Positions 2,381 to 61,335 of a stretch of 64,000 nt of DNA are shown here, one piece after another; the first letter of the stretch is position 1; every line of letters starts with the position of its first letter. Source of the stretch: Candidatus Amesbacteria bacterium (GTDB lineage: Bacteria > Patescibacteriota > Microgenomatia > CAZETR01 > Amesbacteraceae). The notes below the pieces were generated by a model that saw only the letters and a program-made list of their open reading frames with translations, was not told the DNA's origin and searched no databases. The stretch lies in the NCBI GenBank assembly GCA_027371535.1, contig DAHXMV010000001.1, forward strand, positions 32,879 through 96,878, given 5' to 3'. Both the position numbers and the translations under genes were made by a program.

Positions 2381-3100
2381 ATGGCCAGATCGTTTTCGAG
2401 GTTACAGAAACTGGAAGAAAGAAGAAACCTGATAAGAGCCGTGTGGCTTATTTTGGGATCGGTAGCCCTGGTAGCCCTGACAATCACCCTGGGTTTTAAT
2501 ATCCTGACCAAAATCTTTTTATTTTTGGGGAATGTGAATTCAACCAATAAACCGGTGGTGAATACGGATGTGATCCCGCCGGGACCACCGACATTCTTTA
2601 CTTCATTTGAGGCAACCAACAGCGCTGTCATTACATTATCCGGATATGCGGAACCCGGGGCAACAGTATACCTGACCCAAAACACTCAGGCTAAGGGGAA
2701 CGTGGTCAGCACCCAGGACGGGGTTTTCCAATTTCCGGGAATCAAACTGAACCCGGGATTAAATTCCTTTTCCGCGGTGGCGATGGATGCGGCCGGAAAC
2801 CGCAGCCAACCTTCGGTGACAGTCGAAATTACTTTTTCCGACAAGGGACCGGACCTGAAAATCACCGTTCCGACGGATAAACAGATAATTTCCGGCGGAG
2901 ACGGTACAATCCGGATTACCGGGAGTACGGACCCGGATGCCAGGCTGACAGTGAATGACCGGGTGGTGATAGTCAGTCCCAGCGGAAATTTTAATTATTC
3001 GCTGGTACTAAACCAGGGAGATAACAATCTGGTGATAACCGCCACCGATACGACCGGAAACCAAACCCAAAAATCTCTCACCGTAACTTATAATCCCTGA
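2381..3100 (+). CDS. membrane-anchored surface protein with two bacterial Ig-like domains
   Basis: N-terminal TM helix (LIRAVWLILGSVALVALTITLGF). Two repeats end in an ..AxDxAGN(R/Q)S..VTV / ..ATDTTGN.. motif typical of Big-type Ig folds. Confidence 0.65.
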   Translation: MARSFSRLQKLEERRNLIRAVWLILGSVALVALTITLGFNILTKIFLFLGNVNSTNKPVVNTDVIPPGPPTFFTSFEATNSAVITLSGYAEPGATVYLTQNTQAKGNVVSTQDGVFQFPGIKLNPGLNSFSAVAMDAAGNRSQPSVTVEITFSDKGPDLKITVPTDKQIISGGDGTIRITGSTDPDARLTVNDRVVIVSPSGNFNYSLVLNQGDNNLVITATDTTGNQTQKSLTVTYNP

Positions 3101-4247
3101 TTTCAAGAGCCGTGATTAAAGCCAGCCAGACAAGAACCCAGGGGTAGAACAGCGAATTCAGAAATAGGGAATGCACCAGAAGAGCCGCCAAAGACAGGCC
3201 CGGCAGGCTGCCGAATCCGAAAAAAGTCAAAAAAGCTTTCAGATAATTTAGATACAGCAGAAAACCAAACAATCCGGTCGTGGCCAGCACAAACAGCAGG
3301 GAAGAGTCGGCCCCGGCTCCGGCGTGGGAATGCAGCCAGGAATCCTGATTCAAATAACCCAAATCGCGCTGGGCATAGCGATAGGTGTTAAAACCGACAC
3401 CCAAAACCGGATACCGGATAAAGACGGTCAGAGAATTTTTCCAATTGATCAGCCTGGCCATAATGGTACTGGTGCGCTCCAGCTTAACGCCCTCACCTCC
3501 GGGACCCCTGGGCAGCAAAATCAAAGTCAGAGTTAAAATAACAGTACCGATAAAGAATAATTTCCAGGTTTTGCGAAAATAGGCAAATAAAGACAGGGCC
3601 ACAAAAGCAGCCAAAAAACCGGCCCGGGAATAAGTAAGAGCGAATAAGAGATATGCCAGGCCAAAAAGACAACGCTGTTGCCACAGTTTTTTCAGAGGGA
3701 AAAAGACCAAAAAAAGCATGACAAAAAGCAGCATGATGCCCATGAAGCCGGGATCCAGCAGGGAACCGACCACCCGGAAATAATGAGGATCCCAATCGCT
3801 GACAGCCAGTTTTCGGATGTCCGGAAAAAATAAGTACTGGAATAGCCCGGTGATAATGATAACCAGGGATAGAAATCTCAGCCCCCGTAAAATTTCCGTC
3901 CGGCTAAACTGTTTAAAAAATAAAAATAATAAGCCCAGAGAAAGAAATCTGAATAAATAGAGACTGCCGACTGTTACCGCCCGGGCACCCCAACTAAAAA
4001 AAGAAATCAGGAGAGAAAAAAACGCCCATAAAACAAAATTCAGAAAGGGTTTTGTAAACTTATTAACCCTATATATTGATATTAGTTTATTTTTGTGGAC
4101 ATATATTGTATACAAAATGCATAAGAACACCGAAATATCCAAAAGGGAAATTCTGATATCCGGTGAAAAGTATGAAAATTTATAAAGATTGCCCAGGGCG
4201 TATCCCAAAAACAACATTCCCGCAAGCGGATATTTAAGTCCGGTCAT
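3078..4247 (-). CDS. O-antigen ligase/polymerase family (Wzy_C) membrane protein
   Basis: Polytopic membrane protein with a Wzy_C-like periplasmic loop (NTYRYAQRDLGYLNQDSWLHSHAGAGADSS). The 3' end overlaps the convergent Ig-like gene by 23 nt. Confidence 0.7.
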   Translation of the reverse strand: MTGLKYPLAGMLFLGYALGNLYKFSYFSPDIRISLLDISVFLCILYTIYVHKNKLISIYRVNKFTKPFLNFVLWAFFSLLISFFSWGARAVTVGSLYLFRFLSLGLLFLFFKQFSRTEILRGLRFLSLVIIITGLFQYLFFPDIRKLAVSDWDPHYFRVVGSLLDPGFMGIMLLFVMLFLVFFPLKKLWQQRCLFGLAYLLFALTYSRAGFLAAFVALSLFAYFRKTWKLFFIGTVILTLTLILLPRGPGGEGVKLERTSTIMARLINWKNSLTVFIRYPVLGVGFNTYRYAQRDLGYLNQDSWLHSHAGAGADSSLLFVLATTGLFGFLLYLNYLKAFLTFFGFGSLPGLSLAALLVHSLFLNSLFYPWVLVWLALITALEIRDYKLR

Positions 4248-4999
4248 GACGCAGTGGACGGAATACCCCGATTTAGAAGATATAACTTACCCCGGACTAA
4301 AAAAGTATAAAAGGCCATAGTCATGGCGTGAATCAGACCGGGCATGCCGTCGAGAAAACCCAGTTTAACGAGCCACAGAAAAACAAATTTGGCCGGCGGA
4401 TAAACTATTACCTGCCAAATTGAAGCAGTTTTTTTGGCATCATACAATTCCCCGGCTCTGACAGATGAATAAAAATTAATTTTTTGTAAAAACTTTTCCA
4501 GAGTGGGGTGGGGCCGGTGGATCAAGGGGTGACTAAGCCGGCCGGCAGGACCGGAAATCTGCCATGTCTCATGAACCCGGCCCGACCATCTCCCCTGCCC
4601 CGCCTGCCCGAGACGCAAAAGATTTACAGTCCCGGTGTCACCATATTTTAATTGCCTGCCCCACATGAAGTCGATCCGGGGTAAAAAATAGCCGTGAATA
4701 CGGGGATTTTTGATAGCATTTACAATCTCCTGCGCCAGATCTGCCGGAACCGTTTCATCAGCATCAACAAATAGCACCCAGCCGGATTTAACCTGATCAA
4801 GGGCGAAGTTTCGCTCCATAGCAAAATCACCGGAAACGGCAAACTTTAAGACCCGGGCGTGCAGAGCAAGAGCGACTTTGGCAGTAGCGTCAGCAGACTG
4901 ATTATCGATGACCAGGATCCGGTCACAAAACTTTAAAGAGGCAAGACATTCGGGCAGGCTGGCAGCTTCATTTTTGGCGATGATTACGGCCGTAAGCAT
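4244..4999 (-). CDS. glycosyltransferase family 2
   Basis: N-terminal GT-A signature (AVIIAKNEAASL), then VIDNQSAD and a DADE (DxD) motif. Confidence 0.85.
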   Translation of the reverse strand: MLTAVIIAKNEAASLPECLASLKFCDRILVIDNQSADATAKVALALHARVLKFAVSGDFAMERNFALDQVKSGWVLFVDADETVPADLAQEIVNAIKNPRIHGYFLPRIDFMWGRQLKYGDTGTVNLLRLGQAGQGRWSGRVHETWQISGPAGRLSHPLIHRPHPTLEKFLQKINFYSSVRAGELYDAKKTASIWQVIVYPPAKFVFLWLVKLGFLDGMPGLIHAMTMAFYTFLVRGKLYLLNRGIPSTAS

Positions 5000-5008
5000 G
5001 ATTTATGA

Positions 5009-6109
5009 CTATTCTATCACCGATACCCGGGTACCGCTGTCGTTGACCTGAAAAACGGTGTGGGTGCCTGACGGCCCGACTCCGAGACGATTAAGCCACC
5101 AGATCAGATACAGATATGAGGCATTGTAATCCGTAATTCCGGCGATGCCTCCGGCCACCCGGATTTCGGGGTTTGAAATCCGGCTATTCACGAGAATTTG
5201 CCGGGTTTGGGAGATCTGATCCGAAAGCTCATGGCGACCAACCAGTACCGGCGGCAGGAAATTTTGGGAAAAGAGATAAAAACTATTTACCATCAGGAAG
5301 GCCAAACCCAAAACAAACAGGATTTTGCCTGACAAAAAGGATAAGAATTTAGCTGCCAGAATAACCGCAGGAACCAGGATGATCGCCAAATAAGAAATGG
5401 AAATGAAGCCGGCGGGAACGGGTTTGATGTGAATCAGGAACCTGGCCAGCCATAAAAGCACCCCGAAAGTCTGCAGGGGTCCGACAATAATAAAGGGCAA
5501 TACGGAGATGAATAAACCGGCGGAGAATTTCCAGGGAGAAAGCCGGTGCCGGAAAAGATAGAAATAGGCAAAAGGCCAGAGAATGATGCTTAAGAGATGC
5601 AACTGGTAAAGCCAGCCCAAGAACAAACCGCTGACAAATCCCATTTTTTTAACCAAACAGAGGGCAAAAACCAGGAAAAAGAGAATAATCGGTGAATTGT
5701 GATATGCCAGACGGGATAGGACTACCGGCAGGAAAAAACAGGATAATAAAAAAGCAGATATCAAAGCGGTCTTTTTGTCTGAAATAAGAACCGCCAAATA
5801 GTAGATGAGGGGAATGGAGACGATTCCCATAAGGGCGGTCAGAACCGCCCCGCCGACAGGATTAAAGCCGGAGAGGATGAGGGCCGGGATTAAGAGATAG
5901 ACCCAGACAGCGCCCTGATGCAGCCAGGAAATACTGGCGCCGATGGTCACCATGGGAAATGACCCGTGCAGAACACTGTCTCTTGAGAGCAAATAAAACC
6001 AGCTCAGGTCGCTGTAAAACGTCATGCCGGAAAACAGTTTCCAAAACCGCAGCAGGCTGCCGATGAAGATGAAGAGGAGCAGCCGGCCCCAAACGGAATT
6101 AAGCCTCAT
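5009..6109 (-). CDS. polytopic membrane protein, GT-C-like (PMT/ArnT-like) glycosyltransferase candidate
   Basis: Ten or more TM helices. Start chosen at MRLNSVW (6107-6109); the upstream alternative ATGs would overlap the flippase gene. Family assignment is weak. Confidence 0.5.
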   Translation of the reverse strand: MRLNSVWGRLLLFIFIGSLLRFWKLFSGMTFYSDLSWFYLLSRDSVLHGSFPMVTIGASISWLHQGAVWVYLLIPALILSGFNPVGGAVLTALMGIVSIPLIYYLAVLISDKKTALISAFLLSCFFLPVVLSRLAYHNSPIILFFLVFALCLVKKMGFVSGLFLGWLYQLHLLSIILWPFAYFYLFRHRLSPWKFSAGLFISVLPFIIVGPLQTFGVLLWLARFLIHIKPVPAGFISISYLAIILVPAVILAAKFLSFLSGKILFVLGLAFLMVNSFYLFSQNFLPPVLVGRHELSDQISQTRQILVNSRISNPEIRVAGGIAGITDYNASYLYLIWWLNRLGVGPSGTHTVFQVNDSGTRVSVIE

Positions 6110-7340
6110 GGTAAATTTGGGGATGGGAAAAAATCCGGTTGACATAATATAAGGATAGAGGCAGGGAGGCAAAGGAACCGATAATTGCCGCAATCCCGGC
6201 GCCTACAATTCCAAAAGCCATGACCAGCGGATAGATGGAAATTCCCAGGCCGAAAACGCTGACCAAAGTCACCCAGGACACATAATCATTGCGCCTGACG
6301 GCCAGGAGCAGGGGGTAGACGCAGCCGGTGACGGATTTGGCAATACCGCAAAGCGACAACACCTTCAGGGCAGGGATGGCCGGAGCCCATTTGGCACCCA
6401 AAACAATAAATACCACAGGATGGGCGAAAAAGAACAGTATCAAACCAAAAGCCACGGAGACCGCCGAGACGATGAGCGTGGTTTTAAAAAAGGCGCGTTT
6501 TAGCCTGGCCGGATCATGGTTTATCTGCACAAAAACCGGAAAAGAGACCCTGGCCACGACATCACTGACTTCGGAAACCGGGGAGGTGGAAATTTTATAA
6601 GCATAATCATAATAACCCAAACTGGTCTCCCCCAGCATTTTGCCGACAACCATATTGTCCCCGTTTAAGTACAAATACTGGAATATCCCGGCGGCGGTCA
6701 TCCATTTACCCTGCTCTAATATTTCGGCGGCTTTTCGGGCCGTGTAAACAAAACGGGGGCGGGGCGAAAACAGCCAAAAGGAAACGGCCACTTCAAAAAC
6801 CGCGCCGATTAACATGCCAAAACCCAGACTGAGCGGATTATGCAGGACGATGGCCAGAATTATGGCGGTGACTGAATCGGCCAGATAGAGAAAAGTGTTG
6901 ATATGAAATTCCCATTTGAAATGCAATTCTTTCTGCAGCTTGACGATTGAAGGATTGATAAAACCCCGGACAAAGGATACCAGGCAGACCAGATACAACA
7001 CCGGCAGAGAACCAGGGGAATGATAAAAAGAGGAAATCAGGGGGGCGCCGATTAACAAAATCAGACTGATAACCAGGCCCCTCAGTATGGAAATTACCCA
7101 GGCAGTATCAATATAAGAGTCGATATCGCCTTTTTTCTGGATTAAAAAGAAGTTGATGGCGGTTTCGGTAAACACTTCCAATAAACCGAGGGTGAGGGTG
7201 GCGATATTAAAAATTCCAAACTGGGCCGGAAGTAAGATCCGGGCCAAAATGGCCACTCTGACAAAAGTCAGGCCGCGATACAACCACCTCTCGGCGGCAG
7301 CCCAGGAGATGCTATGGACGGCAGTTTTAAAATAACCCAT
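6099..7340 (-). CDS. wzx: polysaccharide flippase, Wzx-like (MOP superfamily)
   Basis: N-terminus WLYRGLTFVRVAILARILLPAQFGIFNIATLTLGLLEVF, with about 12 TM helices. Typical of oligosaccharide flippases. Confidence 0.75.
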   Translation of the reverse strand: MGYFKTAVHSISWAAAERWLYRGLTFVRVAILARILLPAQFGIFNIATLTLGLLEVFTETAINFFLIQKKGDIDSYIDTAWVISILRGLVISLILLIGAPLISSFYHSPGSLPVLYLVCLVSFVRGFINPSIVKLQKELHFKWEFHINTFLYLADSVTAIILAIVLHNPLSLGFGMLIGAVFEVAVSFWLFSPRPRFVYTARKAAEILEQGKWMTAAGIFQYLYLNGDNMVVGKMLGETSLGYYDYAYKISTSPVSEVSDVVARVSFPVFVQINHDPARLKRAFFKTTLIVSAVSVAFGLILFFFAHPVVFIVLGAKWAPAIPALKVLSLCGIAKSVTGCVYPLLLAVRRNDYVSWVTLVSVFGLGISIYPLVMAFGIVGAGIAAIIGSFASLPLSLYYVNRIFSHPQIYHEA

Positions 7341-8277
7341 TGGCTTTGGCCAGATAACCCATCAGAGTACCGAAAATAACACTGATATCGGCAGTAATCT
7401 GAATCAGGGGAAGAAAGATAACGGCCAATATGTTTCTGACATAGCGGTAATTTTTGATGACGGCCCACAGCAGATAGAGCAGGACCAGCAAAGCCAGCGG
7501 GTAATAAAGCACATGAATCCGCTGGGCAAGAAAGAAGAAATATGCAAACGCCAGGTAGCGCAAAATCAGGAATTTGACTTTGGGGCGCAGGATGCCGGCC
7601 TGGATATCCCCGATGGCAAAACGCATAAACATCCAGGCCGACTGCTTTAGATTTTTCCGGGGCATCCAGCCGACTAAAGCCCGAGGGGCAAAGACAAATT
7701 TCACTCCCATGCGCGCCATCCAGACGGCAAAGGCGTAATCCTCGTTGTGATTTAATTTGGGATCGAAGCCGCCGGTCTTGTTCCAGAAGCTTTTGCGCAT
7801 GGCCATGGACCGGGTGGAGGGGAGAAAATACCCGGGATCCACCCTATCGGGCATCACCAGGACATAGGGAATCAGGCATTTTTGGAAAATATTTTCCGGT
7901 AAACCCCGGTAATACCCGCTGACCACCTGCGTCTGGGAGTCGTTAAACGGGGCCACAATTTCAGCCAGCCAGGTTTTTTCGGGAATACAGCCGGCGTCGG
8001 TAAAGACCAGAAGCGGAAAACGGGATTTTGAGACGGCAAAATTCCGGCCGACGGAACGGTTACCGGGAACCTGGAAAGGCCTCAAAACAGGCCAGTCTTT
8101 GGCCAGTTGCCCAAGTTTCTCAAAGGTGCCGTCTTTTGATCCCCCGTCGGTAATAATGACTTCGGTAGGCGGGAGAGTCTGGGCTTTCAGAGCCCTGATC
8201 AGGTCACTAATGGTGTCTGCTTCATTAAAAACAGTGATAAGGAGGGAGGTTTTAAAAAATGTCTTATGATTGGCCAT
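7327..8277 (-). CDS. glycosyltransferase family 2 with C-terminal TM segments
   Basis: SLLITVFNEADTISDLI, then ITDGGSKDGT and a DAG motif. Hydrophobic C-terminal tail. Confidence 0.85.
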   Translation of the reverse strand: MANHKTFFKTSLLITVFNEADTISDLIRALKAQTLPPTEVIITDGGSKDGTFEKLGQLAKDWPVLRPFQVPGNRSVGRNFAVSKSRFPLLVFTDAGCIPEKTWLAEIVAPFNDSQTQVVSGYYRGLPENIFQKCLIPYVLVMPDRVDPGYFLPSTRSMAMRKSFWNKTGGFDPKLNHNEDYAFAVWMARMGVKFVFAPRALVGWMPRKNLKQSAWMFMRFAIGDIQAGILRPKVKFLILRYLAFAYFFFLAQRIHVLYYPLALLVLLYLLWAVIKNYRYVRNILAVIFLPLIQITADISVIFGTLMGYLAKANGLF

Positions 8278-8384
8278 GATTTAACAATTATAACCTGGAT
8301 TTTGAGAGATCTAAATTATTTTACATCTTGGATTTTAATCTGACATAATTTTCTCTTATAATATGGCAGTTAAACTTAATAATT

Positions 8385-8846
8385 ATGATAAAAGCTATCG
8401 ATGATATTGTTTATAGAATAATAAATACATTTCTCGGACGATATATTATCCGTATAAATCTTTTTCGATACAGAATTTATGGTGATGAAAGCCGATTACA
8501 TTTATCTCAAGAAGCAAATGTTTTGAATGCTTTATTTAATGTAGTCTCCGGGAATATTAATATCGAAAAGGGAGTATTTTTTGGACATAATGTTTGTTTA
8601 TTAACTGGAACTCACAATTACCTAAGTTCGGGAGCCTCAAGAAGAAAAGATGTTCCATCTACTGGACGGGATATCACCGTCAAACAAGGTGCCTGGTTAG
8701 CATCAAATGTGACTGTGTTAGGACCTTGTATAATTGGTGAAAATGCCGTGGTAGCAGCCAATTCTCTGGTTATCCATAATGTACAAGCAAATACATTAGT
8801 AGCTGGAACACCTGCAAGAATAATTAAATATTTAAAAAATAGATAA
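8385..8846 (+). CDS. hexapeptide-repeat (left-handed beta-helix) O-acetyltransferase
   Basis: Hexapeptide repeats (VTVLGPCIIGENAVVAANSLVIHNV, AGTPARII) resembling maltose/galactoside or WbbJ-type sugar O-acetyltransferases. Confidence 0.8.
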   Translation: MIKAIDDIVYRIINTFLGRYIIRINLFRYRIYGDESRLHLSQEANVLNALFNVVSGNINIEKGVFFGHNVCLLTGTHNYLSSGASRRKDVPSTGRDITVKQGAWLASNVTVLGPCIIGENAVVAANSLVIHNVQANTLVAGTPARIIKYLKNR

Positions 8847-8847
8847 A

Positions 8848-9969
8848 TTAGTTAACCGTATCATCATTCATAGTTTTTTCATATATATGGTCTGTTAGTT
8901 CTATAGTATGATTCCAAGTATATTTTTCGGCTAAAACTCTCCCCTTGCCTACTCGAGAAGCATGCGACTCCGACACTGCAGTTATTATACTTTGAATTAA
9001 ACTTTCTGGTTGTTTAATATTAAAATATAAGGGTACATCATCGGCTACTTCGTGAAATACAGGTAGATTGCTTGCCACAATTGGTATTTTTTGAGACATA
9101 GCTTCGAGCACCGGAATTCCGAAACCTTCAGCTGATGATGGATATATAACAGCTTTTGCACCACATAAAAGATTAAATAATTGCGATTTTGTTAAACAAC
9201 CAGCAAAATTTATTCTATTATCTATGCCTAATGACCGACTTAGATAGGTTAGTTCGTCAATTTGATGACGATTATCTCCAGTAAAGATTATTTTTAAGTT
9301 TTTAAATATTATTGGATATTTTAATGATGCTTCAGCGAAACATCTGATTAGCATTGAATTGTTTTTGCGATCACCTAGTCCTCCATGACATAATAAATAA
9401 TTACTGAATACATTTGGTTTTGGGGTCCTTAGGTAGAGATTATCGATACCCATTGGTATTACAACTATTTTATTTTTAATTTGATGAAACTTTGAAATAA
9501 CTTCTTTTGAAGTATATTTAGAATTACAAATGATAACTTTTGCCTTATTAATTGAAGAATTTATTTCCCATCTATATAACATTTTGGATATAAATGGAAA
9601 TTTTGAATTTTGAAAGTAATTATGAACGGATAATGGTATCAGATCGTGAACTGTTAATATTGTTTTAAAAGGTGTTATAAATGGAATACCGTAATTCGCT
9701 GTAGCGTGATATAAATCAGGCTTGATTTTTTTCAACAATTCTTCAAGTTGAATCTGTTCCCAATAAAGACGATGGATTTTTAGCGGAATGGTAATATTTT
9801 CGACATTTTTTAAATATAATGGAAGAACAGAAATTACAAAAATACTGTATTTATCTTTATCCAAATAATTTATAATGGCATGAAGGTAATTAGCTATACC
9901 ACCATATGTATTCTCTAGATATCTGCCATCTAAAACCAATTTAATACGATTGAATTTTCTTAAAATCAT
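8848..9969 (-). CDS. glycosyltransferase family 4 (GT-B)
   Basis: KLVLDGRYL N-terminus and [11 protein letters not shown] nucleotide-sugar binding motif. Confidence 0.85.
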   Translation of the reverse strand: MILRKFNRIKLVLDGRYLENTYGGIANYLHAIINYLDKDKYSIFVISVLPLYLKNVENITIPLKIHRLYWEQIQLEELLKKIKPDLYHATANYGIPFITPFKTILTVHDLIPLSVHNYFQNSKFPFISKMLYRWEINSSINKAKVIICNSKYTSKEVISKFHQIKNKIVVIPMGIDNLYLRTPKPNVFSNYLLCHGGLGDRKNNSMLIRCFAEASLKYPIIFKNLKIIFTGDNRHQIDELTYLSRSLGIDNRINFAGCLTKSQLFNLLCGAKAVIYPSSAEGFGIPVLEAMSQKIPIVASNLPVFHEVADDVPLYFNIKQPESLIQSIITAVSESHASRVGKGRVLAEKYTWNHTIELTDHIYEKTMNDDTVN

Positions 9970-10747
9970 TTGTCTTTAAAGATTCGATAATTAGATTGTT
10001 AGTGTGTCCATAATTTAGTATTTTAGATAAAAATGATTTTAATGAATAGTAATTATGGTATGCATATAAATATTTCTTCTTATTTGTTTTAAAACCTGAA
10101 ATTAATAATTCTGTCCTAAGAATTTCCAAGGTATATTTTCTGACATGATTAATTGGATTTATCCCAATTTTCAGATAATTTTCCAAATTTTCGTTTAAAG
10201 GTACAGAAGCAATAAAAATACCACCTTTTTTAGTTATTCTGTTAACCTCCCTCAAGGTTCGAAATATACCACTCGGACTAATGTGCTCTAAAACTTCTGA
10301 TGCAATTACACAATCAAAATAGTTATTTGAATAATGGATATTATCAGATTTTAGACATGTAAATGTTGCATTATGAAACCTTTTATTAGCCTCACTAACG
10401 GATTCTTTAGCTATATCAATCCCATGCCATTCATAATTAGATTGATCTATTTGTAATAATTTTTCTAAATTACAAGATCCGAACCCAATATTTAAAATCT
10501 TTTTGATTTTTTTGTTACCTTTAATCCATTTGGCAATAATATTTAATTTATTCCAGGCCATAGGATATTTCTCTTTAGATGTATCGATTTCAAAGTTTTT
10601 CTTACTCCAATAAATATTTGTATTTCTGTTCTTAATTTCTGGTAATTTACTACTATACAATGCAATAAAAGATTTAAAGTCTCTACTCCTTGCATAACTA
10701 TCTCTTAGTACTTCGAGTTTCAAGGCTTTATTATTTAGATCTTGCAT
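9941..10747 (-). CDS. class I SAM-dependent methyltransferase
   Basis: Motif I (ILNIGFGSCN), then DCVIASEVLEHI (Methyltransf_11/23-like). Confidence 0.8.
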   Translation of the reverse strand: MQDLNNKALKLEVLRDSYARSRDFKSFIALYSSKLPEIKNRNTNIYWSKKNFEIDTSKEKYPMAWNKLNIIAKWIKGNKKIKKILNIGFGSCNLEKLLQIDQSNYEWHGIDIAKESVSEANKRFHNATFTCLKSDNIHYSNNYFDCVIASEVLEHISPSGIFRTLREVNRITKKGGIFIASVPLNENLENYLKIGINPINHVRKYTLEILRTELLISGFKTNKKKYLYAYHNYYSLKSFLSKILNYGHTNNLIIESLKTNDFKKIQSY

Positions 10748-10785
10748 ATTTAAAATATATTATTATACGATTAACTTAATATAAT

Positions 10786-13470
10786 ATGAAATATATATTA
10801 AAATATTGTTTCATTTTTATTATTTCTTTAATAAGTTTAAATTATATTACAAGGGTAACTTTAAAGGCTTACTTCAATATATGGAATCTCGAAAAGGAAT
10901 TATTACCTTATGCAATACACAATAATCAAGTTTATATATTCAACAAAGATATATATTCTTTTGGTGGAAGTTCGAACATAGTAAGTAATAAGCTTTTTAT
11001 TGGAAAATTAGGATTAGATGATTCAATTTTAAATTGGAGAATATCTGATTCTACACTCCCTTTCGAATTATTATGGCATAATTTAGCTTATCTAAATCAA
11101 AATGTATATATTTTGGGTGGAAGTATATTTCCGAATTACCAACCGTATTCTATAAATAATGTCAGTCTTGGCCATATAGACAATTCTGATATTTTACATT
11201 GGATTCAAGTAAACCCCTTACCTGCACCTTTATCATTAGGCTCATCACATACATTTAATGGTTATATTTATTATTCTGGAGGAGGTTTTTGGAATGGCTC
11301 AAATTACGACTTTCCTAAACTTAGTAATAAAGTATATAAAGCCTTAGTTAATATCGATGGGGTTTTGGGTGATTGGCAAGATGCTGGTTTCCTTCCTGAA
11401 CCTTTACTTGGTCATGAAATGACTTTCATTGGAGAGAAAATCTATATTTTTGGCGGTATAAGGAATATTTGCAATCTTCCAACAACGGAATGCTATCCCA
11501 CAACAGGAAATGTGTGGGTATCGTCATTAGATAGTAAGGGTAATATATCTAGCTGGGAGAAAGTTAGTGAACTAGGTGGTGGTCCATCATATCAATTTAT
11601 GCTTATCAATTCGGGTAATTATCTAATTAAACTAGGGGGAAGAGGTAATATACTCCATGGCTCAATTTTAACCGATAATATATTTTTCTCTGAGATCGCA
11701 AGTAATGGCTCAATAGGTCCTTGGAAAGAAAGTAATTATACTTTGCCTTTAAAGCTTTGTTGCTCCGGGGTAGCTCTGAGTGAGAATAGTATTTTCTTAT
11801 TTGGTGGGCATGATGGGAAGACATATTTTAATAATGTATGGAGAGCAAAAATAGCCGATATTGTCAGTGAACCTACTCCTACTCCTACTCCCAAGATTAC
11901 AAAACCTCTGGTGTTTATTCCGGGAATGGGCGGAAGCCTGAATATGAACGCCTTTTTATATAACCAGGATTTAGATCATTCTTACTGGAAATTAGTCAGT
12001 TATGTGTCGCCTTATGACGGATTAATCAAAACCTTTAAAAAAGCCGGTTATGAGATGAATAAAACCCTGTTTATTTATACTTATGACTGGAGAAAGGATA
12101 TTAAAGAACTCACTGTCGACTTTCAGCAGTACATCAGGGACCATGTTTTAACCGGAAAACCCGACGGTACCCAAATCGATGTGGTGGGACATTGTATGGG
12201 GGGATTAATTGCCAGATCAGCGGCAAAAGACGCCTATGCGACTTACATTGATAAAGTAATTACCGCCGGCAGCCCGGTGCTGGGCAGTGCCACTGTCTAC
12301 CCGGTTTGGGAGGGGGCGGAATTGTCAGATATGCCGGATATGCAACGAATTGCAATTCAGATATTATTGCGGATACATCAAAAAGATTACGATGACCAGG
12401 TAACTGAAATTCAGGATATGATACCATCCATTCAGAATTTTTTGCCTGTCTGGAGTTATCTGCAGACAAAAAACGGACAAACAAAGGATCTGTCGAAATT
12501 GACCTGGCAAAACAATTTTTTGGGCGAGCTAAACGGTAACTCAAACAACATGGTCGGCCGGATGAGTATTTTATACGGCAGCGGCTACAATACTCCGGAA
12601 ACGATTAAAGTGGCCGAACCGGAAAGGATCCAGAAGCTGTTAGGAAAATGGATTGACGGCCAACCGACCGGCAAAATATATTCCGACGGGGATGATACGG
12701 TAACCACAAGCAGTGCACATTTGGCGGGAGTGACTCAAATTTCTGAAATTACCAATACAAATCACGGTGAAATAGTATCAGCCATTCCCGGTCAAATGGA
12801 AATAATGAGATATCTGGGGGTTAAAGATGCTGTGGCTACAGAAAACAACAATACGGATGCTCAGAAGTCATTGGCGGTATTTGTAGGGTCGCCGGTGACC
12901 TTTACCGTGGAAAATGGTGAGAAGACTTGGAACCCCAAAGACGGATTGGTGGTAATTACCAATCCCGAAAATGGAAATTATAAGATTCACGTGACCAGCA
13001 TTCTACCGGGGGAATATACGCTATATTTCGGCAGGCTTTTTAAAGGAGATACAGCGTGGGAAGAGGAAACCGGAAATTTTACCGCAGGAGAACCGACAGA
13101 AAGAGAATATATTTATAATGTAAATTTCGACAATAAAAACCTGGGGGGCAATCCCCTCGAAGATGCCATTGAAAGAATGCAGATAATAACGGATACGCTT
13201 TCAAAAGCAGAAAATACCCAGGTTTACAGCCAGGCAGCCAAGGTTTATATGACGCATATCCAGCAGGATCTCAATAATTTAAAAAGCCTAAATACAAATA
13301 ACCCGGAAGCCGGGATAAATTCGATTTTAAAACAGATCAACTTCTCATTAACCAATCTTCATACCTGGAAAATAGTACCCGAAAAATTTGATTTCGGTTC
13401 GGCATTTATAACCCAACAGATGAGACTGGTAAAAGGTGATATGGATCAATATGCCGGTGATATATTGTAG
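10786..13470 (+). CDS. secreted multidomain protein: signal/TM, Kelch-type beta-propeller, TPTPTP linker, lipase-like alpha/beta hydrolase (GHCMGG) and a C-terminal beta-sandwich
   Basis: The N-terminus is hydrophobic. Six or more Kelch-like blades recur as YIFGG / YILGG / YYSGGG / YIFGG / IKLGG / FLFGG. After the linker comes PLVFIPGMGG ... DVVGHCMGGLIARSA ... ITAGSPVLG, which matches lipase class 2 / LCAT / PGAP1-like hydrolases but has Cys at the nucleophile position. Confidence 0.8.
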   Translation: MKYILKYCFIFIISLISLNYITRVTLKAYFNIWNLEKELLPYAIHNNQVYIFNKDIYSFGGSSNIVSNKLFIGKLGLDDSILNWRISDSTLPFELLWHNLAYLNQNVYILGGSIFPNYQPYSINNVSLGHIDNSDILHWIQVNPLPAPLSLGSSHTFNGYIYYSGGGFWNGSNYDFPKLSNKVYKALVNIDGVLGDWQDAGFLPEPLLGHEMTFIGEKIYIFGGIRNICNLPTTECYPTTGNVWVSSLDSKGNISSWEKVSELGGGPSYQFMLINSGNYLIKLGGRGNILHGSILTDNIFFSEIASNGSIGPWKESNYTLPLKLCCSGVALSENSIFLFGGHDGKTYFNNVWRAKIADIVSEPTPTPTPKITKPLVFIPGMGGSLNMNAFLYNQDLDHSYWKLVSYVSPYDGLIKTFKKAGYEMNKTLFIYTYDWRKDIKELTVDFQQYIRDHVLTGKPDGTQIDVVGHCMGGLIARSAAKDAYATYIDKVITAGSPVLGSATVYPVWEGAELSDMPDMQRIAIQILLRIHQKDYDDQVTEIQDMIPSIQNFLPVWSYLQTKNGQTKDLSKLTWQNNFLGELNGNSNNMVGRMSILYGSGYNTPETIKVAEPERIQKLLGKWIDGQPTGKIYSDGDDTVTTSSAHLAGVTQISEITNTNHGEIVSAIPGQMEIMRYLGVKDAVATENNNTDAQKSLAVFVGSPVTFTVENGEKTWNPKDGLVVITNPENGNYKIHVTSILPGEYTLYFGRLFKGDTAWEEETGNFTAGEPTEREYIYNVNFDNKNLGGNPLEDAIERMQIITDTLSKAENTQVYSQAAKVYMTHIQQDLNNLKSLNTNNPEAGINSILKQINFSLTNLHTWKIVPEKFDFGSAFITQQMRLVKGDMDQYAGDIL

Positions 13471-13475
13471 CGCTT

Positions 13476-14210
13476 TTACCTACTCACGATAATAGCAGAT
13501 TTGGACGATTCGTCGGTTATCGGGAGGTGGTCACCGGTGGGATAATCGCGGATGGCGAAGAAGAATTTTGAAGATGAATAGCGGAAATTTTCACCGTGGC
13601 GGGTACCGGCGTCATTCGTGATGAATTCATCAGTTTGCGGATCGTAACCGCGAATGACAATCATATGCCTTTGGGGCCCCGGAGGAGTATAAAAAGGATT
13701 TCCCAGCAGCTGGCCATTCATGGGAGTGACTACCAGGCTTCCGGCATCCAAATAATTGACAATCTGGCTGACTGCCGTTAACTTTGCCACGCGGATTTGA
13801 TTATATTTAAAATAACCTTTAAAAATCCTGTCGGCAGCATCCCCGGCAGAAGTGTCTACAGAAGTCCCGAATTCTTTGATTTCAAAATCGGAAATTTTCT
13901 GAATTTCATTCAGCATAATCCGGGGAGTAAGGATCTGATTTTTAGCCCAATAGACGGCGATGACAGCGGCGGCCTCCTCACAACCGTTCTGCTCCTGCGG
14001 ATCCTGCCAGTTACCAAAAGGCGCCTGAGCAGCAAAGGGGACATCCGAAATATAAATCAGTTTATGGGCGGGGAAAACTGTGGGTACAGGACGTATGATA
14101 GCAGGTGTCGGCAGAATAACCGAGACGATGGTTGACGGTAAACCGGACCTGAAGAAATAAACAATAATCAGGGTAAAAATTAATAGTATGTAGACCAGGA
14201 ACCATTTCAT
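13476..14210 (-). CDS. membrane-anchored papain-like cysteine peptidase, C39-like (Peptidase_C39_2) candidate
   Basis: N-terminal TM helix. Ordered Cys/His/Asp candidates: QNGCEEAAAV, HMIVIRGYD, NDAG. Start set at MKWFL (14208-14210) because the longer ORF-track N-terminus runs through tRNA-Val. Confidence 0.55.
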   Translation of the reverse strand: MKWFLVYILLIFTLIIVYFFRSGLPSTIVSVILPTPAIIRPVPTVFPAHKLIYISDVPFAAQAPFGNWQDPQEQNGCEEAAAVIAVYWAKNQILTPRIMLNEIQKISDFEIKEFGTSVDTSAGDAADRIFKGYFKYNQIRVAKLTAVSQIVNYLDAGSLVVTPMNGQLLGNPFYTPPGPQRHMIVIRGYDPQTDEFITNDAGTRHGENFRYSSSKFFFAIRDYPTGDHLPITDESSKSAIIVSR

Positions 14211-14218
14211 GTGGAGAG

Positions 14219-14290
14219 TGGGCACAGAGGGATTTGAACCCCCGGCATCTGCAATGTGAATGCAGCGCTCTACCGCTGAGCTATGTGCCC
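14219..14290 (-). tRNA. tRNA-Val (anticodon CAC)
   Basis: Manual fold gives acceptor GGGCACA/TGTGCCC, D arm GCTC-AGCGGTA-GAGC, anticodon stem CTGCA/TGCAG with loop TTCACAT (anticodon CAC), and T arm GGGGG-TTCAAAT-CCCTC. Confidence 0.9.
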
Positions 14291-14345
14291 CTAAAGCCCC
14301 CTTCAGATCTCGACAAATTTTAACATAGGCGCCATAATTAATAAC

Positions 14346-14918
14346 ATGTTTAAATTCCTGAACCAAAAAGCGGCGGTGGCCATTTTGGAAGCTATCCAGC
14401 CGGTAGTGATGGCATTTGCCATATTTATGATGATTTATTTGTTTGTGGCCCAGCCACACAAAGTTGACGGCAGTTCCATGTATCCCAATTTCCACGACAA
14501 GGAATTTATATTAACGGACAAAATAACTTACAGAAGATCAGATCCGCAAAGAGGCGATGTAATCATCTTTCACGCTCCGCCGCCGTTTGACAGCGATTTT
14601 ATTAAGAGAATCATCGGCCTTCCGGGCGAAACCGTGATGGTTAAAGACAATCATGTATATGTGAACAGTAAATTATTACCGGAGCCGTATTTACCCTCCG
14701 ATTTTGTAACCACCGAGAAATCATTTCTCAGAGAAGGAGTGCCTTATACAATACCACTAGGCTATTACATAGTTATGGGAGATAACCGCAGCTACAGTTC
14801 AGATTCGCGCGAATGGGGACCTATAGCCAGAAGTGCAATTGTAGGCAAAGCGTGGCTTAGGTACTGGCCTATAAACGAAATCGGTTTAATCAAACACCAA
14901 AGTTACAAAAATTTCTAA
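14346..14918 (+). CDS. lepB: signal peptidase I
   Basis: S26 family boxes: GSSMYPN (catalytic Ser), KRIIGLPGE, and GDNRSYSSDSREWGP. Confidence 0.9.
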   Translation: MFKFLNQKAAVAILEAIQPVVMAFAIFMMIYLFVAQPHKVDGSSMYPNFHDKEFILTDKITYRRSDPQRGDVIIFHAPPPFDSDFIKRIIGLPGETVMVKDNHVYVNSKLLPEPYLPSDFVTTEKSFLREGVPYTIPLGYYIVMGDNRSYSSDSREWGPIARSAIVGKAWLRYWPINEIGLIKHQSYKNF

Positions 14919-32707: not shown

Positions 32708-35700
32708 TCAGTATACCGGTTCGTAGACAATTTTACGGCGCAGACCGATATCCCGGAGGATTCTGATCAGACGCGGATTGTAGTGCACAAATTCCGCCGG
32801 ATACGGACCTTTGCTGGTACGGTTTAGGTTAATCCCCTGTCTGGCGGCAATTGCCCCGTCAAACTTGATCTGGCTGACGGAGGTATTGACTGTAAATGCC
32901 CCGTCGGTATACAGGATGGCCGAGATATCCGCCGGGTATGCGGCCTGGGTAATATCATACTGGGGCGGAATACCGGTGGGGGTGGGAGTAATGGCCACTC
33001 CATTGCCCAAAGTAATACTTCCCTTTGAAAAAATAGCCAGGAAACCATCCGTGGCCGGATTTGTTTCGGTCATAGTGATTGACCCGCCGATGGTTACCGA
33101 TCCCTGGTCCACCAAAATAATAGCTTTGTTTTGACTTGGAGTAAGACTGGAAATGTCTAACGGGGCTCCGGGGTCTCCGATCGTGGCTCCGCCGGGATCA
33201 TTTATTTCTATCACATACACATTAAACTTCCCTGCCCCGTAATTGAAAGTCATGTAATGATTCGCACTATTGGCAGCAGTGATTGCCGCCTGCAGATCCG
33301 CCGTAGTTGCCAGGGTATTACCGGGCAACATATATGCCCCGCCGCTTTTGGACCGGGATTTGGCTCTTTCCTTCATCGAATCATAGGTATTTTCCGGTTT
33401 GTTGTTCATGAGGGTCCAGGGATTGGACCCGGAGAAGATCCAGTTCATGTTGTTAATAAAATCCGGACGGTTGACATTCACGCCGGTTGATCCGAAAGCA
33501 ATCCCCGGCAGGGGGACCAGCCCGGCCGGAGTCAGAGGCACCTCACCCGGCATGATCACCCAGGGCTGGAATGTGAGGTAAGCCGGAGATATGTTTTCAG
33601 TCAGCGGTCCACCGGCGGCCGTCACATCCCCTCCCTGAACTTCAAAATATGAAGAGTAGGCAGCACACTTGGCCCACACTCCTCCGGGAGGTGTCCGGAT
33701 GCTCTCCTGACAACCCACAGGATTGGAGCTTTTCAAAGCGCTCACACTATAACCGTATTGTGTTCCGCAGACTGCCAAAGCATCGGTCCAGTTGAATACT
33801 GCCGGTCCGGTAGTCGTTTTTACTGCCGGTGGATTGGAAATATCCGATCTGTAAACGTTAAAACCGGAGAGTCCCGCATCCCCGTCCACCCAAGATACCA
33901 GAATATGATTATTGGGTATATTACCATCATCTACCGCGGTCGCCGAACCCGGCGGGTTGGGAGCACAGGGTACCGTAACGGTAGTCCCGCCGATGTTGGT
34001 AGTGCCGGGGGTAGAGCAGGTGCTGTAATCTTTAATTTGCACCAGGTGGCTGCCACAGGTAAGACTCAGGTTATTCACGTAGTTGGTGACGACACCGGAC
34101 TTCACCGTAGATCCGTCAACCAATAGGTCATACGATCCGGCTCCGGCCACCGCCGGCCAACTGACATTTACTCCCTGGTCTGTCTGGGTACACCATATAG
34201 TCGCAGTCGGGTTGGGCGGACCTACCTGGGAACAACACATCGCCGGTCCGCACCAATTACCGATGGCCTCCCCTGAGTCGTTATAAGCCCCGACTGTATA
34301 CATATACCAGGTATCCTGAACAGCTGAAGTGTCAGTATATGATGAGATATCGGGTCCGGTACTCGGCGTGCTAAAAAAACCAGGTGATCTGTACAAATGA
34401 AAACCGGTTTCATTATTGGAATTATCAGTCCAGGTGACATTCATGCTGCCCGTTGAACAGCTACATGAGACGTTACCGGGGGCAACAGGCGTACAGTTAT
34501 TTGCCGTTGTATATTCGGTGTTGCTATCGTGGGTTCCTTTACATGCGTTAGTAGATCTGATAAAGATCGAGTGGCTGCCAACTGCATATCCGGCATTATA
34601 TGCCGTAGTGTAGGGACTGACGGAGATAGCTCCCAAATCCATTCCATCGATCCATAAATGTGAAGCCCCCGAGGTATCCCCACTCCAGTTAATGGTAAAA
34701 GTCCCGCAGTTACCCGTCACATTAGAAATTGAGGGTGTGGAAACGTCATCATATACATCAACTTGTACCTGGTCATTGCTTCCGCAGTTTCCATATAATC
34801 CGTTCGGCCAAATTACCGTGGATGCCTGATTACCCGTGCACTTCCCCCCAGTTTTCGAAGCGGCATTCGATGTAAATAGGTAAGACCCGGCAGTATCAAG
34901 TGTTGTGGTCGCCGACAGACTATTTGAATTTGAATTACTTGCTAATGCCGGTGACCAGCTAGCTCCCTGGGTCAGGTCGGAGGTTGTGTTGGCATGGTAA
35001 ATACTTATAAACCCTATCCCCTCTGCAGCCGTTGAGCTGCCGTTTGCCATAACTGAACTTGCCCCTGTACAATTAGTTGTTGCTGTCACACTACTACCGG
35101 TGATAATGCATTTCTTGTCCACAGAAATAGAACATGTTGGCCATGGCGGATGACAGGACAACATTGGAGCCAAAGGGCCAGCACCGGGATAGCCTGTGTT
35201 CTGATCATTTGGCATTTGATAGAGAAGCGATCCACCATACATTGAACCATCGGGGGAGTTAAAAACCACATCAATCTGCTGAGGCGTAGGTCCGGTAGCG
35301 CCGTTATAACAATCATTGGTGTAATCCAGCTCAAAGTAATGCCAACCGGCTGTCACCTGAACATTAAATCTATGCTGGGCGCTAGTTTGACCATAACACC
35401 ATCCAGAACCCGAATGCTGCAAATTTATGACCGGAGCCGGGGTAGGATTAGTATTGGGGACCCGGTTGTCTATATAAACCTTCACTTCACCCCAACCGGA
35501 AAATTGGGGAGAAATCGCGAAGTTATAGTTGCCTGTTACATCAAAGTACATATACCCCTGCCATATTCCTCCGGTATTTCCACGACACATATACCTCGCA
35601 TCCGTCCCTTCATATAGCCATCCTGCTACATCTGTCGGGGTCCGGCAGTGATTCAGGCCGGGATTGGGACAGGTAAAATCATACCAGTTAAAAGCATTTG

Positions 35701-61318: not shown

Positions 61319-61335
61319 ATATTTATCAGAATATT

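Follow-up and report, generated by a model that had tools for sequence, protein, structure and literature searches.

A probable recombination tract in a conserved surface-glycan locus ends at the linker of a Kelch–hydrolase gene

An AT-rich block within a conserved glycan locus

Why should a block of AT-rich DNA end inside an intact reading frame, between two domains of the encoded protein? The block lies at ~8.22–11.89 kb of a 64-kb window (the whole stretch of DNA analysed here) and is its biggest compositional outlier, with GC at third codon positions (GC3) of 0.19–0.23, compared to 0.50 ± 0.054 (minimum 0.38) for the 42 other genes. Its composition-normalised tetranucleotide usage correlates with that of the rest of the window at r = 0.56, about 9 SD off controls of the same length (n = 107; r = 0.91 ± 0.04, minimum 0.78). 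Both measures confirm the first-pass annotation, which had described the DNA from 8278 to ~11.88 kb as much more AT-rich than its flanks. That annotation had the block start where a GT2 gene ends, at 8277; the sequence is indeed AT-rich from there, but the edge itself lies inside this gene (GT2b, 7327–8277, minus strand), with a base-level change point at nt 8221 (support 8196–8253, LLR 55), within the first ~20 codons. GC3 of GT2b rises from 0.35 over codons 1–20 to 0.62 from codon 41 onward. The host is an uncultured Microgenomates-group CPR bacterium, and the closest genome with a name is a Candidatus Amesbacteria MAG.

The left arm of the glycan locus consists of genes for a Wzy/O-antigen-ligase-like protein (3078–4247), GT2a (4244–4999), a GT-C/PMT_2-like protein (5009–6193), and a Wzx flippase (6099–7340), all assigned by Pfam and all on the minus strand. 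Their order is kept in L001, L008, L009, L011, and L016 at 35–63% amino acid identity, and their GC3 is 0.49–0.60. GT2b (Pfam Glycos_transf_2), the conserved left flank of the block, is 62% identical to its L001 ortholog. On the right, the Kelch–hydrolase gene (10786–13470, plus strand) is flanked by a conserved Peptidase_C39_2-like gene (Pfam; 13476–14210, minus strand, 244 aa), which is 52% identical to that of L001 and also present in L008, L009, L011, and L014. The next gene, tRNA-Val(cac) (14218–14290, minus strand, found by ARAGORN), had been proposed as an island landmark, but it sits at the matching place in L001, L008, L009, L011, and L016, and by this synteny belongs to the conserved backbone and is no island landmark. 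The conserved order runs from tRNA-Thr through Wzy, GT2, GT-C-like, Wzx, GT2, GT4, and the methyltransferase to the divergent Kelch–hydrolase gene, and continues with the C39-like peptidase, tRNA-Val, S26 signal peptidase, and ParB.

Three genes lie wholly within the block. The first encodes a hexapeptide-repeat acyl/acetyltransferase (AcT; 8385–8846, plus strand, Pfam Hexapep, GC3 0.19), the only one in the block with no counterpart in the orthologous loci L001 and L008–L017; its best database matches, at 53–61% identity, come from unrelated phyla. The second is a GT4 glycosyltransferase (8848–9969, minus strand, Pfam Glycos_transf_1/Glyco_transf_4, GC3 0.20), conserved in position but very divergent in sequence: it is 36% identical to the GT4 part of a fusion protein in L001, its best non-self match among 5.8 billion proteins is also at 36%, and the same slot is filled by a GT4 in L008, L009, L016, and L017. 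The third is a type A SAM-dependent methyltransferase (MT; 9941–10747, minus strand, Pfam Methyltransf_11/25, GC3 0.21, FYMINK fraction 0.45), transcribed divergently from the Kelch–hydrolase gene; the two MT types of these loci share 26–33% identity. Of the three, only AcT is specific to the window; GT4 and MT were rejected as inserted genes because they are conserved locus members in every relative. A repeat search found no direct repeats flanking the block, and no integrase domain was found among the Pfam-scanned ORFs between 3078 and 14495.

The composition step coincides with the interdomain linker

The Kelch–hydrolase protein is predicted to begin with a signal-anchor helix (aa 2–20), followed by a six-bladed Kelch β-propeller (aa ~33–355; Pfam Kelch, AlphaFold pLDDT 63–89) that matches six-bladed Kelch domains in Foldseek at TMt 0.7–0.8. 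The AT-rich part of the ORF that matches Pfam Kelch families (10786–11868, GC3 0.22) is separated by a Pro/Thr linker, EPTPTPTPK (aa 362–370, nt 11869–11895, GAA CCT ACT CCT ACT CCT ACT CCC AAG), from an LCAT/PGAP1-like α/β hydrolase part of host-like composition (11896–13470; LCAT 59.7 bits, PGAP1 34 bits). Residues 363–370 of the linker are modelled as disordered (pLDDT < 50), and a P/T/S-rich linker is found at the matching place in every ortholog whose linker was located. The nucleophile elbow, GHCMGG at 12187–12204, carries Cys470 (codon TGT) where the orthologs have Ser. The hydrolase domain is followed by a β-sandwich (aa ~695–779) and a helical tail.

The ORF has a single GC3 change point, which coincides with the linker: it falls at codon 368 (nt 11890), and its support interval (2 log-likelihood units) spans codons 363–381 (nt 11875–11929). 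The step is highly significant (LLR 25.0; in 2000 permutations the 99.9th percentile was 8.6 and the highest value 8.9); GC3 rises from 0.22 to 0.46 and GC at fourfold-degenerate sites from 0.23 to 0.59 (LLR 21.7). The same change-point test detected no further significant step in either the Kelch half or the hydrolase half. In relative synonymous codon usage, the Kelch half follows the three AT-rich genes (r = 0.80) and not the background (r = 0.02), whereas for the hydrolase half the correlation with the background is r = 0.54 and tetranucleotide usage is ordinary (r = 0.87 with the background). The recovery of composition right after the linker (~11870–11896), as first described, is therefore correct for GC3 but not for raw GC, which shows no step at 11.88 kb and instead rises gradually from 0.22 at 10.8 kb through 0.36–0.39 at 11.2–12.1 kb to 0.45–0.49 beyond. 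Similarly, the base-level maximum-likelihood right boundary is drawn leftward to ~11355 by the strong AT bias that the signal anchor and first blades also show at codon positions 1 and 2. The FYMINK/GARP ratio of the Kelch half, 1.84, is the highest among nine orthologs; it exceeds that of the protein's own hydrolase half only in the window and L001, with the reverse in the other seven. This amino acid bias suggests that the Kelch half has spent a long time under AT pressure.

Alleles are swapped within the same gene in near-identical relatives

Two pairs of near-identical relatives carry different alleles at this position. The flanks of L009 and L011 are 99.4% identical over 8.4 kb and 99.9% over 12.1 kb, but the 1.2–1.3 kb between them, comprising MT and the first ~153 Kelch codons, cannot be aligned. 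In L015 and L016, with flanks of 99.9–100% identity, the unalignable gap covers MT and 140–153 codons. The junctions in both pairs are abrupt, in frame and within the Kelch–hydrolase gene, with SNP clusters beside both junctions in L009/L011; within the pairs, identity is 37% and 46% over Kelch aa 31–145, compared to 99–100% over aa 160–362. Intragenic swaps thus happen in this gene in two other lineages, where the junction lies between blades 2 and 3 and not at the linker. L011 has a GC3 change point at codon 130 (LLR 9.2), close to the swap junction at codon ~153, while L015 and L016 have steps that, taken singly, fall short of significance (LLR 4.0 and 2.7).

In these relatives the swappable module is built around MT. 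The MT tree agrees with that of Kelch aa 31–145 and both disagree with the hydrolase tree, and the module of MT and the Kelch N-terminus thus crosses species boundaries. The end of the AT-rich trough varies by lineage, at codon ~130–150, ~222–249 or, in the window, 368, as expected of tracts of different length. A module swap at the linker, one of the two origins first proposed, is supported by these data, for the window indirectly, through the position of its break on the linker and the swaps in the two pairs of relatives.

Origin of the AT-rich block

Taken together, the observation is real and its first interpretation is partly supported. Our reading is that the block probably represents a tract imported by recombination, at the hypervariable centre of an otherwise conserved surface-glycan locus of the Wzx/Wzy type, and that this centre behaves as a replacement-type flexible island. 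Central alleles at a fixed position would be exchanged by homologous recombination, with crossovers in conserved sequence on both sides. For the window, the tract would comprise AcT, GT4, MT, and the entire Kelch propeller, and would most likely derive from an unsampled, much more AT-rich relative with the same locus. The left crossover may be placed near the start of GT2b, within its first ~20 codons, and the right one in the Pro/Thr linker, so that the chimeric protein would join an imported propeller to the resident hydrolase; the AT-rich block most likely ends exactly at the linker because the linker was the recombination junction. Such swaps could alter methylation or acetylation of the surface glycan and, at the same time, the propeller with which an anchored lipase/acyltransferase-like enzyme would recognise its ligand, and may be driven by diversifying selection from phage or host/episymbiont contact. 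In the window's own species no alternative allele was found (both additional contigs are 100% identical to the window), and searches for the donor gave best non-self matches of 37% for the Kelch–hydrolase protein, 36% for GT4 and 53–61% for AcT. For these reasons, we infer the window's own swap, with its composition break as the putative junction and an AT-rich donor.

A less probable explanation, though one with a real claim, is that composition diverged in situ without discrete import and that the GT4–MT–Kelch core was inherited vertically. Hyperdivergent allele classes would cease to recombine with the rest of the population and either escape GC-biased gene conversion or drift to an AT mutational equilibrium, and the linker would be where the non-recombining segment has ended over the long term, not the site of a single crossover. 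Regardless of host GC, every orthologous locus has depressed GC in MT and the first ~150 Kelch codons, which show the lowest GC3 in all eight tabulated loci (seven with a measured background GC3 of 0.35–0.51); part of the trough thus belongs to the locus itself and is not due to a single import. Moreover, the MT, Kelch, and hydrolase segments of the window are all nearest to the sister lineage L001, which shows a weaker trough at the matching place, and the searches with the Kelch–hydrolase protein, GT4, and AcT found no donor. However, among the tabulated loci GT4 and Kelch codons 151–370 are depressed only in the window, where the contrast is far bigger than elsewhere (0.20 versus 0.51). In situ divergence also has to accommodate a trough end that differs among lineages, a tetranucleotide signature that is foreign even after normalisation for base composition, and true replacements of the segment in two other species, and a sharp step within one transcript would still need a recombination boundary at the linker.

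Discussions of low GC in variable glycan genes often turn to selection on expression. AT-rich rare codons might lower translation or shape the divergent MT/Kelch promoter region without recombination, and the trough is centred on this intergenic region in every locus. We regard this as unlikely for the window, since it predicts a gradient near the start codon, while a plateau of 368 codons with a step 9 codons wide at the linker was observed; it also leaves the amino acid bias, the tetranucleotide shift, and the allele replacements in the strain pairs unexplained.

The fusion of Kelch and hydrolase domains is ancestral

The other origin first proposed was the insertion of a foreign glycan-modification cassette beside a stand-alone hydrolase, creating a new in-frame fusion, with tRNA-Val as the landmark. 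The composition break does coincide with the domain boundary, and L005, L006, and L018, from other genomes, have hydrolase modules that lack a Kelch domain. However, the architecture of Kelch, PT linker, and LCAT-like hydrolase is conserved in at least eight distinct syntenic relatives at 30–37% identity, and the fusion is present in P0002–P0004 and L008–L017 with a matching gene neighbourhood. Fusion and synteny are therefore ancestral, and cassette insertion was discarded as the maker of the fusion: this level of identity and the different host backbones exclude that the orthologs descend from such an event. GT4, MT, and tRNA-Val are conserved in place, and the lack of direct repeats and of an integrase domain in the scanned ORFs also speaks against insertion, which we consider very improbable. 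Composition is not uniform in the orthologs that share the fusion, several of which show a weaker 5′ GC3 depression in this gene. Both halves of the protein are closest to the L001 ortholog (Kelch ~41–42%, hydrolase 39%), so there is no phylogenetic incongruence between them at the resolution available, which speaks against a newly made fusion but also against the swap.

Among the 150 best representatives of the hydrolase family (clustered at 50% identity), ~45 match the profile over its full length, including the Kelch part, while in ~70 the match starts only at profile position ~330–392, most at 345–362. Those of the latter that were examined carry other N-terminal modules (RCC1, LVIVD, or with no Pfam match). 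Across the family, the linker is thus a point where one N-terminal module or another has repeatedly been joined to the hydrolase, which also backs the module swap.

Although the window comes from what is apparently a metagenome-assembled genome and strain-variable regions mis-assemble readily, a chimera with the contig of an AT-rich organism is hardly credible, since two assemblies of different samples by different assemblers, a k141 contig of ENA ERZ27233560 (22.7 kb compared) and a Logan contig of SRR13170412 (13.5 kb compared), are 100% identical to the window across both boundaries, the ORF is intact and in frame, and the genes of the block have homologs in the corresponding slots of related loci.

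Comparison with known systems

In aquatic prokaryotes, replacement flexible genomic islands (rfGI), or 'glycotype' islands, change hands through homologous recombination within their conserved flanks (Lopez-Perez, Martin-Cuadrado and Rodriguez-Valera 2014, PMC4033161). Like these, the locus occupies a fixed chromosomal position in all relatives, contains exposed-glycan genes (Wzx, Wzy, glycosyltransferases, and modifying enzymes), and has unalignable alleles in near-identical strains, with sharp boundaries and, in L009/L011, SNP clusters beside them; it likewise has no integrase in the Pfam-scanned ORFs, no tRNA attachment site and no repeats. It differs in its host, a CPR/Microgenomates lineage, and in the very small unit seen replaced (~1.2 kb, one methyltransferase and ~150 codons of the neighbouring gene). 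In the window, one boundary would lie inside a coding gene at a structural module boundary and give a chimeric protein, and the replacement is deduced from composition and not observed in a strain pair.

In O-antigen (rfb) and capsule (cps) switching of Enterobacteria and pneumococci, a low-GC centre is exchanged and parts of flanking genes are co-transferred (gnd, pbp2x/pbp1a). The present locus resembles these in a centre of lower GC than the genome, in the Wzx/Wzy pathway, and in breakpoints in or beyond conserved flank genes, which become mosaic. However, the mosaic gene here is not a housekeeping hitch-hiker but encodes a locus-specific, predicted secreted or anchored two-domain protein, whose propeller would travel with the variable genes.

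Multidomain carbohydrate-active and surface enzymes have modules joined by Pro/Thr-rich linkers and shuffled there. The catalytic module in this locus is of the LCAT/PGAP1 (lipase/acyltransferase) type and not a glycoside hydrolase, and the window copy has Cys for the nucleophile Ser. As in such enzymes, the linker parts a putative binding module from the catalytic α/β hydrolase, and the same hydrolase follows Kelch, RCC1, LVIVD, or unannotated modules, with matches that begin at the linker.

Gene order of the glycan locus

As judged from its Pfam annotation (Wzy_C, Polysacc_synt_3 (Wzx), two GT2, PMT_2-like, GT4, methyltransferase and Hexapep acyltransferase), the locus is probably a Wzx/Wzy-type surface-glycan cluster, whose genes would serve an exposed cell-surface structure. 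They run in the order Wzy_C protein, GT2, PMT_2-like GT-C protein, Wzx flippase, second GT2 (GT2b, 7327–8277), hexapeptide acetyltransferase (AcT, 8385–8846), GT4 glycosyltransferase (8848–9969), SAM-dependent methyltransferase (MT, 9941–10747) and the Kelch–hydrolase protein KelchHyd (10786–13470, 894 aa), which is transcribed divergently from MT. A C39-like peptidase, tRNA-Val, signal peptidase S26, ParB, L27/L21, FtsW and IleRS lie downstream of KelchHyd.

Among named genomes, the nearest is a Candidatus Amesbacteria MAG (loci L001, the nearest ortholog locus, and L004), whose housekeeping proteins are 63–88% identical to those of the window. The order GT2b–GT4–MT–KelchHyd–C39–tRNA-Val–S26–ParB is kept in L001 and in four further loci from metagenomes (L008, L009, L011 and L016), and partly kept in L012, L014, L015 and L017. 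The locus occupies a fixed position between conserved flanks in all relatives, with GT4 and MT at the same positions in every one; AcT alone is peculiar to the window.

Some variation was also seen around this core. In the Amesbacteria MAG (L001 7323–9155), the GT4 beside MT is itself fused to an extra methyltransferase domain (610 aa), and in L009 (7492–8410) and L016 (7215–8245) GT4 is split into two ORFs of ~160–175 aa each, through a frameshift or a genuine split. The first 112 codons of the Wzy-like gene (3078–4247, − strand) have a lower GC at third codon positions (GC3) than the rest (0.37 versus 0.55, log-likelihood ratio (LLR) of the change point 5.7), and 31 SNPs fall within 73 bp of its ortholog in the L009/L011 pair (L009 1319–1391), a pattern that resembles a second, small mosaic patch of the glycan locus. 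Finally, the IleRS of the L009 (15850–18651)/L011 (16577–19378) lineage is 39% identical to that of the window, compared to 52–73% for L001, L012 and L016, and its type appears to have been replaced.

A sharp compositional boundary at the Kelch/hydrolase linker

The AT-rich block described in the first-pass annotation is real: GC drops from a window mean of 45% to 22–36% at ~8.2–11.2 kb, and AcT, GT4 and MT have GC3 values of 0.19, 0.20 and 0.21, compared to 0.50 ± 0.054 (minimum 0.38) for the 42 other genes of the window. The base-level change point at the left edge is nt 8221 (support 8196–8253), ~20 codons inside GT2b and not precisely on its start codon.

Within the ORF of KelchHyd, a maximum-likelihood scan located one GC3 change point, and one only, at codon 368 (nt 11890; 2-unit support interval codons 363–381, nt 11875–11929). 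Its LLR is 25.0, compared to a maximum of 8.9 over 2000 permutations. GC3 rises from 0.22 to 0.46 across this step, and from 0.23 to 0.59 at fourfold-degenerate sites alone, with no further significant GC3 step within either half. Since the linker EPTPTPTPK between the Kelch and hydrolase halves is encoded by nt 11869–11895, the break had been placed correctly by the first-pass annotation. Raw GC does not step at this place as GC3 does; it ramps up, since the signal anchor and first blades are AT-rich at codon positions 1 and 2 too.

Other measures follow the same division. In codon usage, the Kelch half follows AcT, GT4 and MT (r = 0.80), not the genome (r = 0.02). For composition-normalised tetranucleotides, the correlation between the block and the remainder of the window is r = 0.56, compared to 0.91 ± 0.04 for same-length controls, and the signature of the hydrolase half is ordinary (r = 0.87). 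The FYMINK/GARP ratio of the window's Kelch half (1.84) is the highest among all orthologs, and it exceeds that of the protein's own hydrolase half only in the window and L001, the reverse being found in the other seven; this bias in the window indicates long evolution under AT pressure. A two-step model with an extra blade 2/3 junction was rejected for the window, as a step within codons 1–370 is not significant (LLR 2.3). A promoter and terminator scan of the block gave counts no different from those in shuffled sequence.

Elsewhere in the window, the second-strongest tetranucleotide outlier is at 33–36 kb (r = 0.72), where GC is normal and where a 1184-aa ORF without Pfam match is located (32708–36262, − strand). 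A second, milder low-GC stretch at 59397–63519 (36–40% GC, GC3 0.39–0.43) has a GT2 and a GT4 of its own plus a 727-aa protein without Pfam match, all encoded on the + strand, in contrast to all other long ORFs listed from 13.5 to 59 kb (− strand). This stretch may be another variable glycan cluster.

Module swapping in strain pairs

Relatives show swapping of a module at this locus. In the pair L009/L011, the left flank (8.4 kb) is 99.4% identical and the right flank (12.1 kb) 99.9% identical, whereas a middle segment of 1.2–1.3 kb (L009 8437–9713 versus L011 9221–10440) has no DNA similarity; this segment comprises MT, the intergenic region between the two divergent genes, and KelchHyd up to codon ~153. 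In an independent replacement, MT and 140–153 codons of KelchHyd differ between L016 (8272–9477) and L015 (124–1401), the flanks being 99.9–100% identical. In both pairs, sequence identity is lost over a few bases at each junction, and the reading frames of both ORFs are preserved. The L009/L011 pair has seven SNPs no more than 33 nt from the left junction and two no more than 7 nt from the right one; SNP clusters and abrupt junctions like these characterise replacement flexible genomic islands as described in PMC4033161. The right junctions are at the homologous place in both pairs, just before the blade-3 strand that precedes a conserved YYSGGG motif, and within pairs Kelch aa 31–145 are 37% and 46% identical, compared to 99–100% for aa 160–362.

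The MT proteins fall into type A (window, L001, L008, L009, L014, L016, L017 and L020) and type B (L011, L012 and L015), which are 26–33% identical to each other and 46–49% identical within one type across species. The dimorphism appears to be common to more than one species. Each strain pair combines one type A and one type B MT. The MT tree agrees with that of Kelch aa 31–145 and both conflict with the hydrolase/backbone tree, so the module moves or persists across species as a unit.

The sole DNA-level match between the Kelch genes of the window and L001 is a 45-nt stretch of 91% identity (11266–11310 versus L001 10487–10531), which encodes IYYSGGGxWNGSNYD of blade 3 directly downstream of the strain-pair junction position and may be a recombination anchor.

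A probable longer tract in the window

MT and Kelch codons 1–150 are AT-depressed relative to the host in every locus (MT GC3 0.20–0.31, backgrounds 0.35–0.51), and the window alone extends this depression to GT4 and to Kelch codons 151–370, with by far the largest contrast. The depression ends at codon ~130–150 in L011, L015 and L016, at codon ~222–249 in L001, L008 and L012, and at codon 368 in the window. L011 has a significant change point at codon 130 (LLR 9.2), close to its demonstrated junction; those of L015 and L016 (codons 142 and 137) are also near the junction and are not significant individually. As a single transcript would hardly acquire a sharp synonymous-site step unless a recombination boundary ran through it, we read nt ~11875–11929 as the right-hand junction of a longer tract, which would contain AcT, GT4, MT and the whole propeller and whose left junction would lie in the first codons of GT2b.

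The AT-richness could instead have been kept partly in place, one conceivable cause being that hyperdivergent alleles which do not recombine drift to the AT mutational equilibrium. The trough in MT and the 5′ part of Kelch is universal across the loci, which is consistent with this account; we nevertheless consider it unlikely, and even then the linker is still a recombination boundary, not necessarily that of a single recent import.

For the longer tract, no conspecific alternative allele was found: DNA of two other contigs, of the three that encode the identical KelchHyd protein, is 100% identical to the window, and the database contains no protein 50–99% identical to KelchHyd. The donor search gave best non-self matches of 37% for full KelchHyd, 36% for GT4 and 53–61% for AcT, the latter scattered over unrelated phyla, and no donor lineage. 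A split phylogeny of the two KelchHyd halves was rejected for the window, as both are closest to L001; tree incongruence was found only for L009/L011 and L015/L016. A shared ACTCCT repeat as crossover substrate found no support, the linkers of the orthologs being P/T/S-rich but different in codons and length.

The first-pass annotation had also suggested that an inserted cassette created the fusion. The same Kelch–PT linker–hydrolase arrangement is found at 30–37% identity in the related proteins P0002–P0004 and in metagenome loci L008–L017, and relatives carry it in the same gene order, so it is neither the product of such an insertion nor new to the window; its Kelch and hydrolase halves are 41% and 39% identical to the nearest ortholog. 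In relatives the site is occupied by homologous genes and is not empty. The tRNA-Val(cac) taken as an island landmark lies 2.3 kb off, beyond two conserved genes, and keeps its position in relatives, and a search for direct and inverted repeats over 7.8–12.6 kb gave only short AT-rich chance matches, with none above chance flanking 8.28 or 11.88 kb. With no integrase domain in the Pfam-scanned ORFs of 3078–14495 either, a classical integrative island (integrase, att repeats, insertion at the tRNA 3′ end, empty site) is rejected. An assembly chimera is ruled out by two other assemblies from different samples, which are 100% identical to the window over both block edges.

Architecture of the Kelch–hydrolase protein

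KelchHyd consists of an N-terminal hydrophobic helix, a six-bladed Kelch propeller (aa ~33–355), a disordered Pro/Thr linker, an LCAT/PGAP1-like α/β hydrolase, a β-sandwich and a helical tail. Membership of the LCAT/PGAP1-like family is given by Pfam scores of 59.7 bits for LCAT and 34.0 bits for PGAP1 (curated cut-offs 21 and 24.3). The architecture, from signal anchor to helical tail, is collinear over the full length in alignments with P0002–P0004 and with L008–L016, and the structure model, fold matches and profile search agree. Among the best 150 cluster representatives (50% identity), ~45 match the profile over the full length and ~70 only from position ~330–392, most of them at 345–362; in those of the latter that we examined, the place of Kelch is taken by an RCC1, LVIVD or unannotated N-terminal module. 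These profile matches indicate that the linker is a recurrent seam across the wider hydrolase family.

The hydrolase/β-sandwich/helical-tail module is also found in L005 (9380–11890), L006 (2–2503) and L018 (1847–4426) behind other N-terminal domains of 230–330 aa without Pfam match, with a long PT linker in L018, and behind RCC1 and LVIVD propellers in the related proteins P0005 and P0008. The module with its varied N-termini makes up a large modular family.

The nucleophile elbow departs from G-x-S-x-G, with GHCMGG in the window (12187–12204) compared to GHSMGG in P0002–P0004; the Cys470 codon is TGT (12193–12195), and the sequence is the same in contigs from two further assemblies. Asp636 and His660 are invariant in the four-sequence alignment (window and P0002–P0004) and are candidates for the remaining triad residues. 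The Cys470 elbow could be a putative thiol-nucleophile variant or mark an inactivated enzyme. A PDB sequence search with KelchHyd matched Kelch domains only and gave no match for the hydrolase part, and as residues 493–693 of the structure model are of low confidence, we drew no fold-based hydrolase function.

Discussion

CPR/Patescibacteria have tiny genomes and are often attached to other cells, and to our knowledge almost nothing is known about how they vary their surfaces; no specific publication came up in a literature search that paired them with Kelch or with hypervariable glycosyltransferase loci. The locus described here suggests that they use the same strategy as well-studied bacteria, a glycan island at a fixed position that is exchanged by recombination. 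With the island boundary running through a surface enzyme, a putative recognition domain would travel with the glycan-modifying genes. The propeller may recognise the glycan that MT and AcT, transferred along with it, have modified, and may position the lipase/acyltransferase-like domain; phage or contact with a host may drive the diversification.

A more specific proposal, to which we assign a low probability, is that MT and the first blades (all blades in the window) form a matched ‘writer–reader’ cassette of at least two or three ancient types exchanged between Microgenomates species, in which the blades recognise the modified glycan and target the lipase/acyltransferase-like domain, and only crossovers at structural boundaries survive. 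If true, each type would pair a particular glycan methylation (plus acetylation in the window) with the blades recognising it, surviving crossovers would fall at blade 2/3 or the PT linker, and bacteria that rely on cell-to-cell contact with hosts would have, in this locus, a compact system for switching their surface at the strain level. The MT type (A or B) and the Kelch N-terminus offer a marker for strain typing and population genomics, and KelchHyd provides a worked case in which a GC3 step can place a recombination junction to within ~10 codons.

O-antigen and capsule loci are known to switch with mosaic flank genes, and the window locus would work in the same way. It also resembles replacement flexible genomic islands, the testable features of which are found in the relatives. 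Less usual compared to known islands are the CPR host, the very small exchanged unit, and a boundary that cuts a conserved two-domain surface enzyme at its structural seams.
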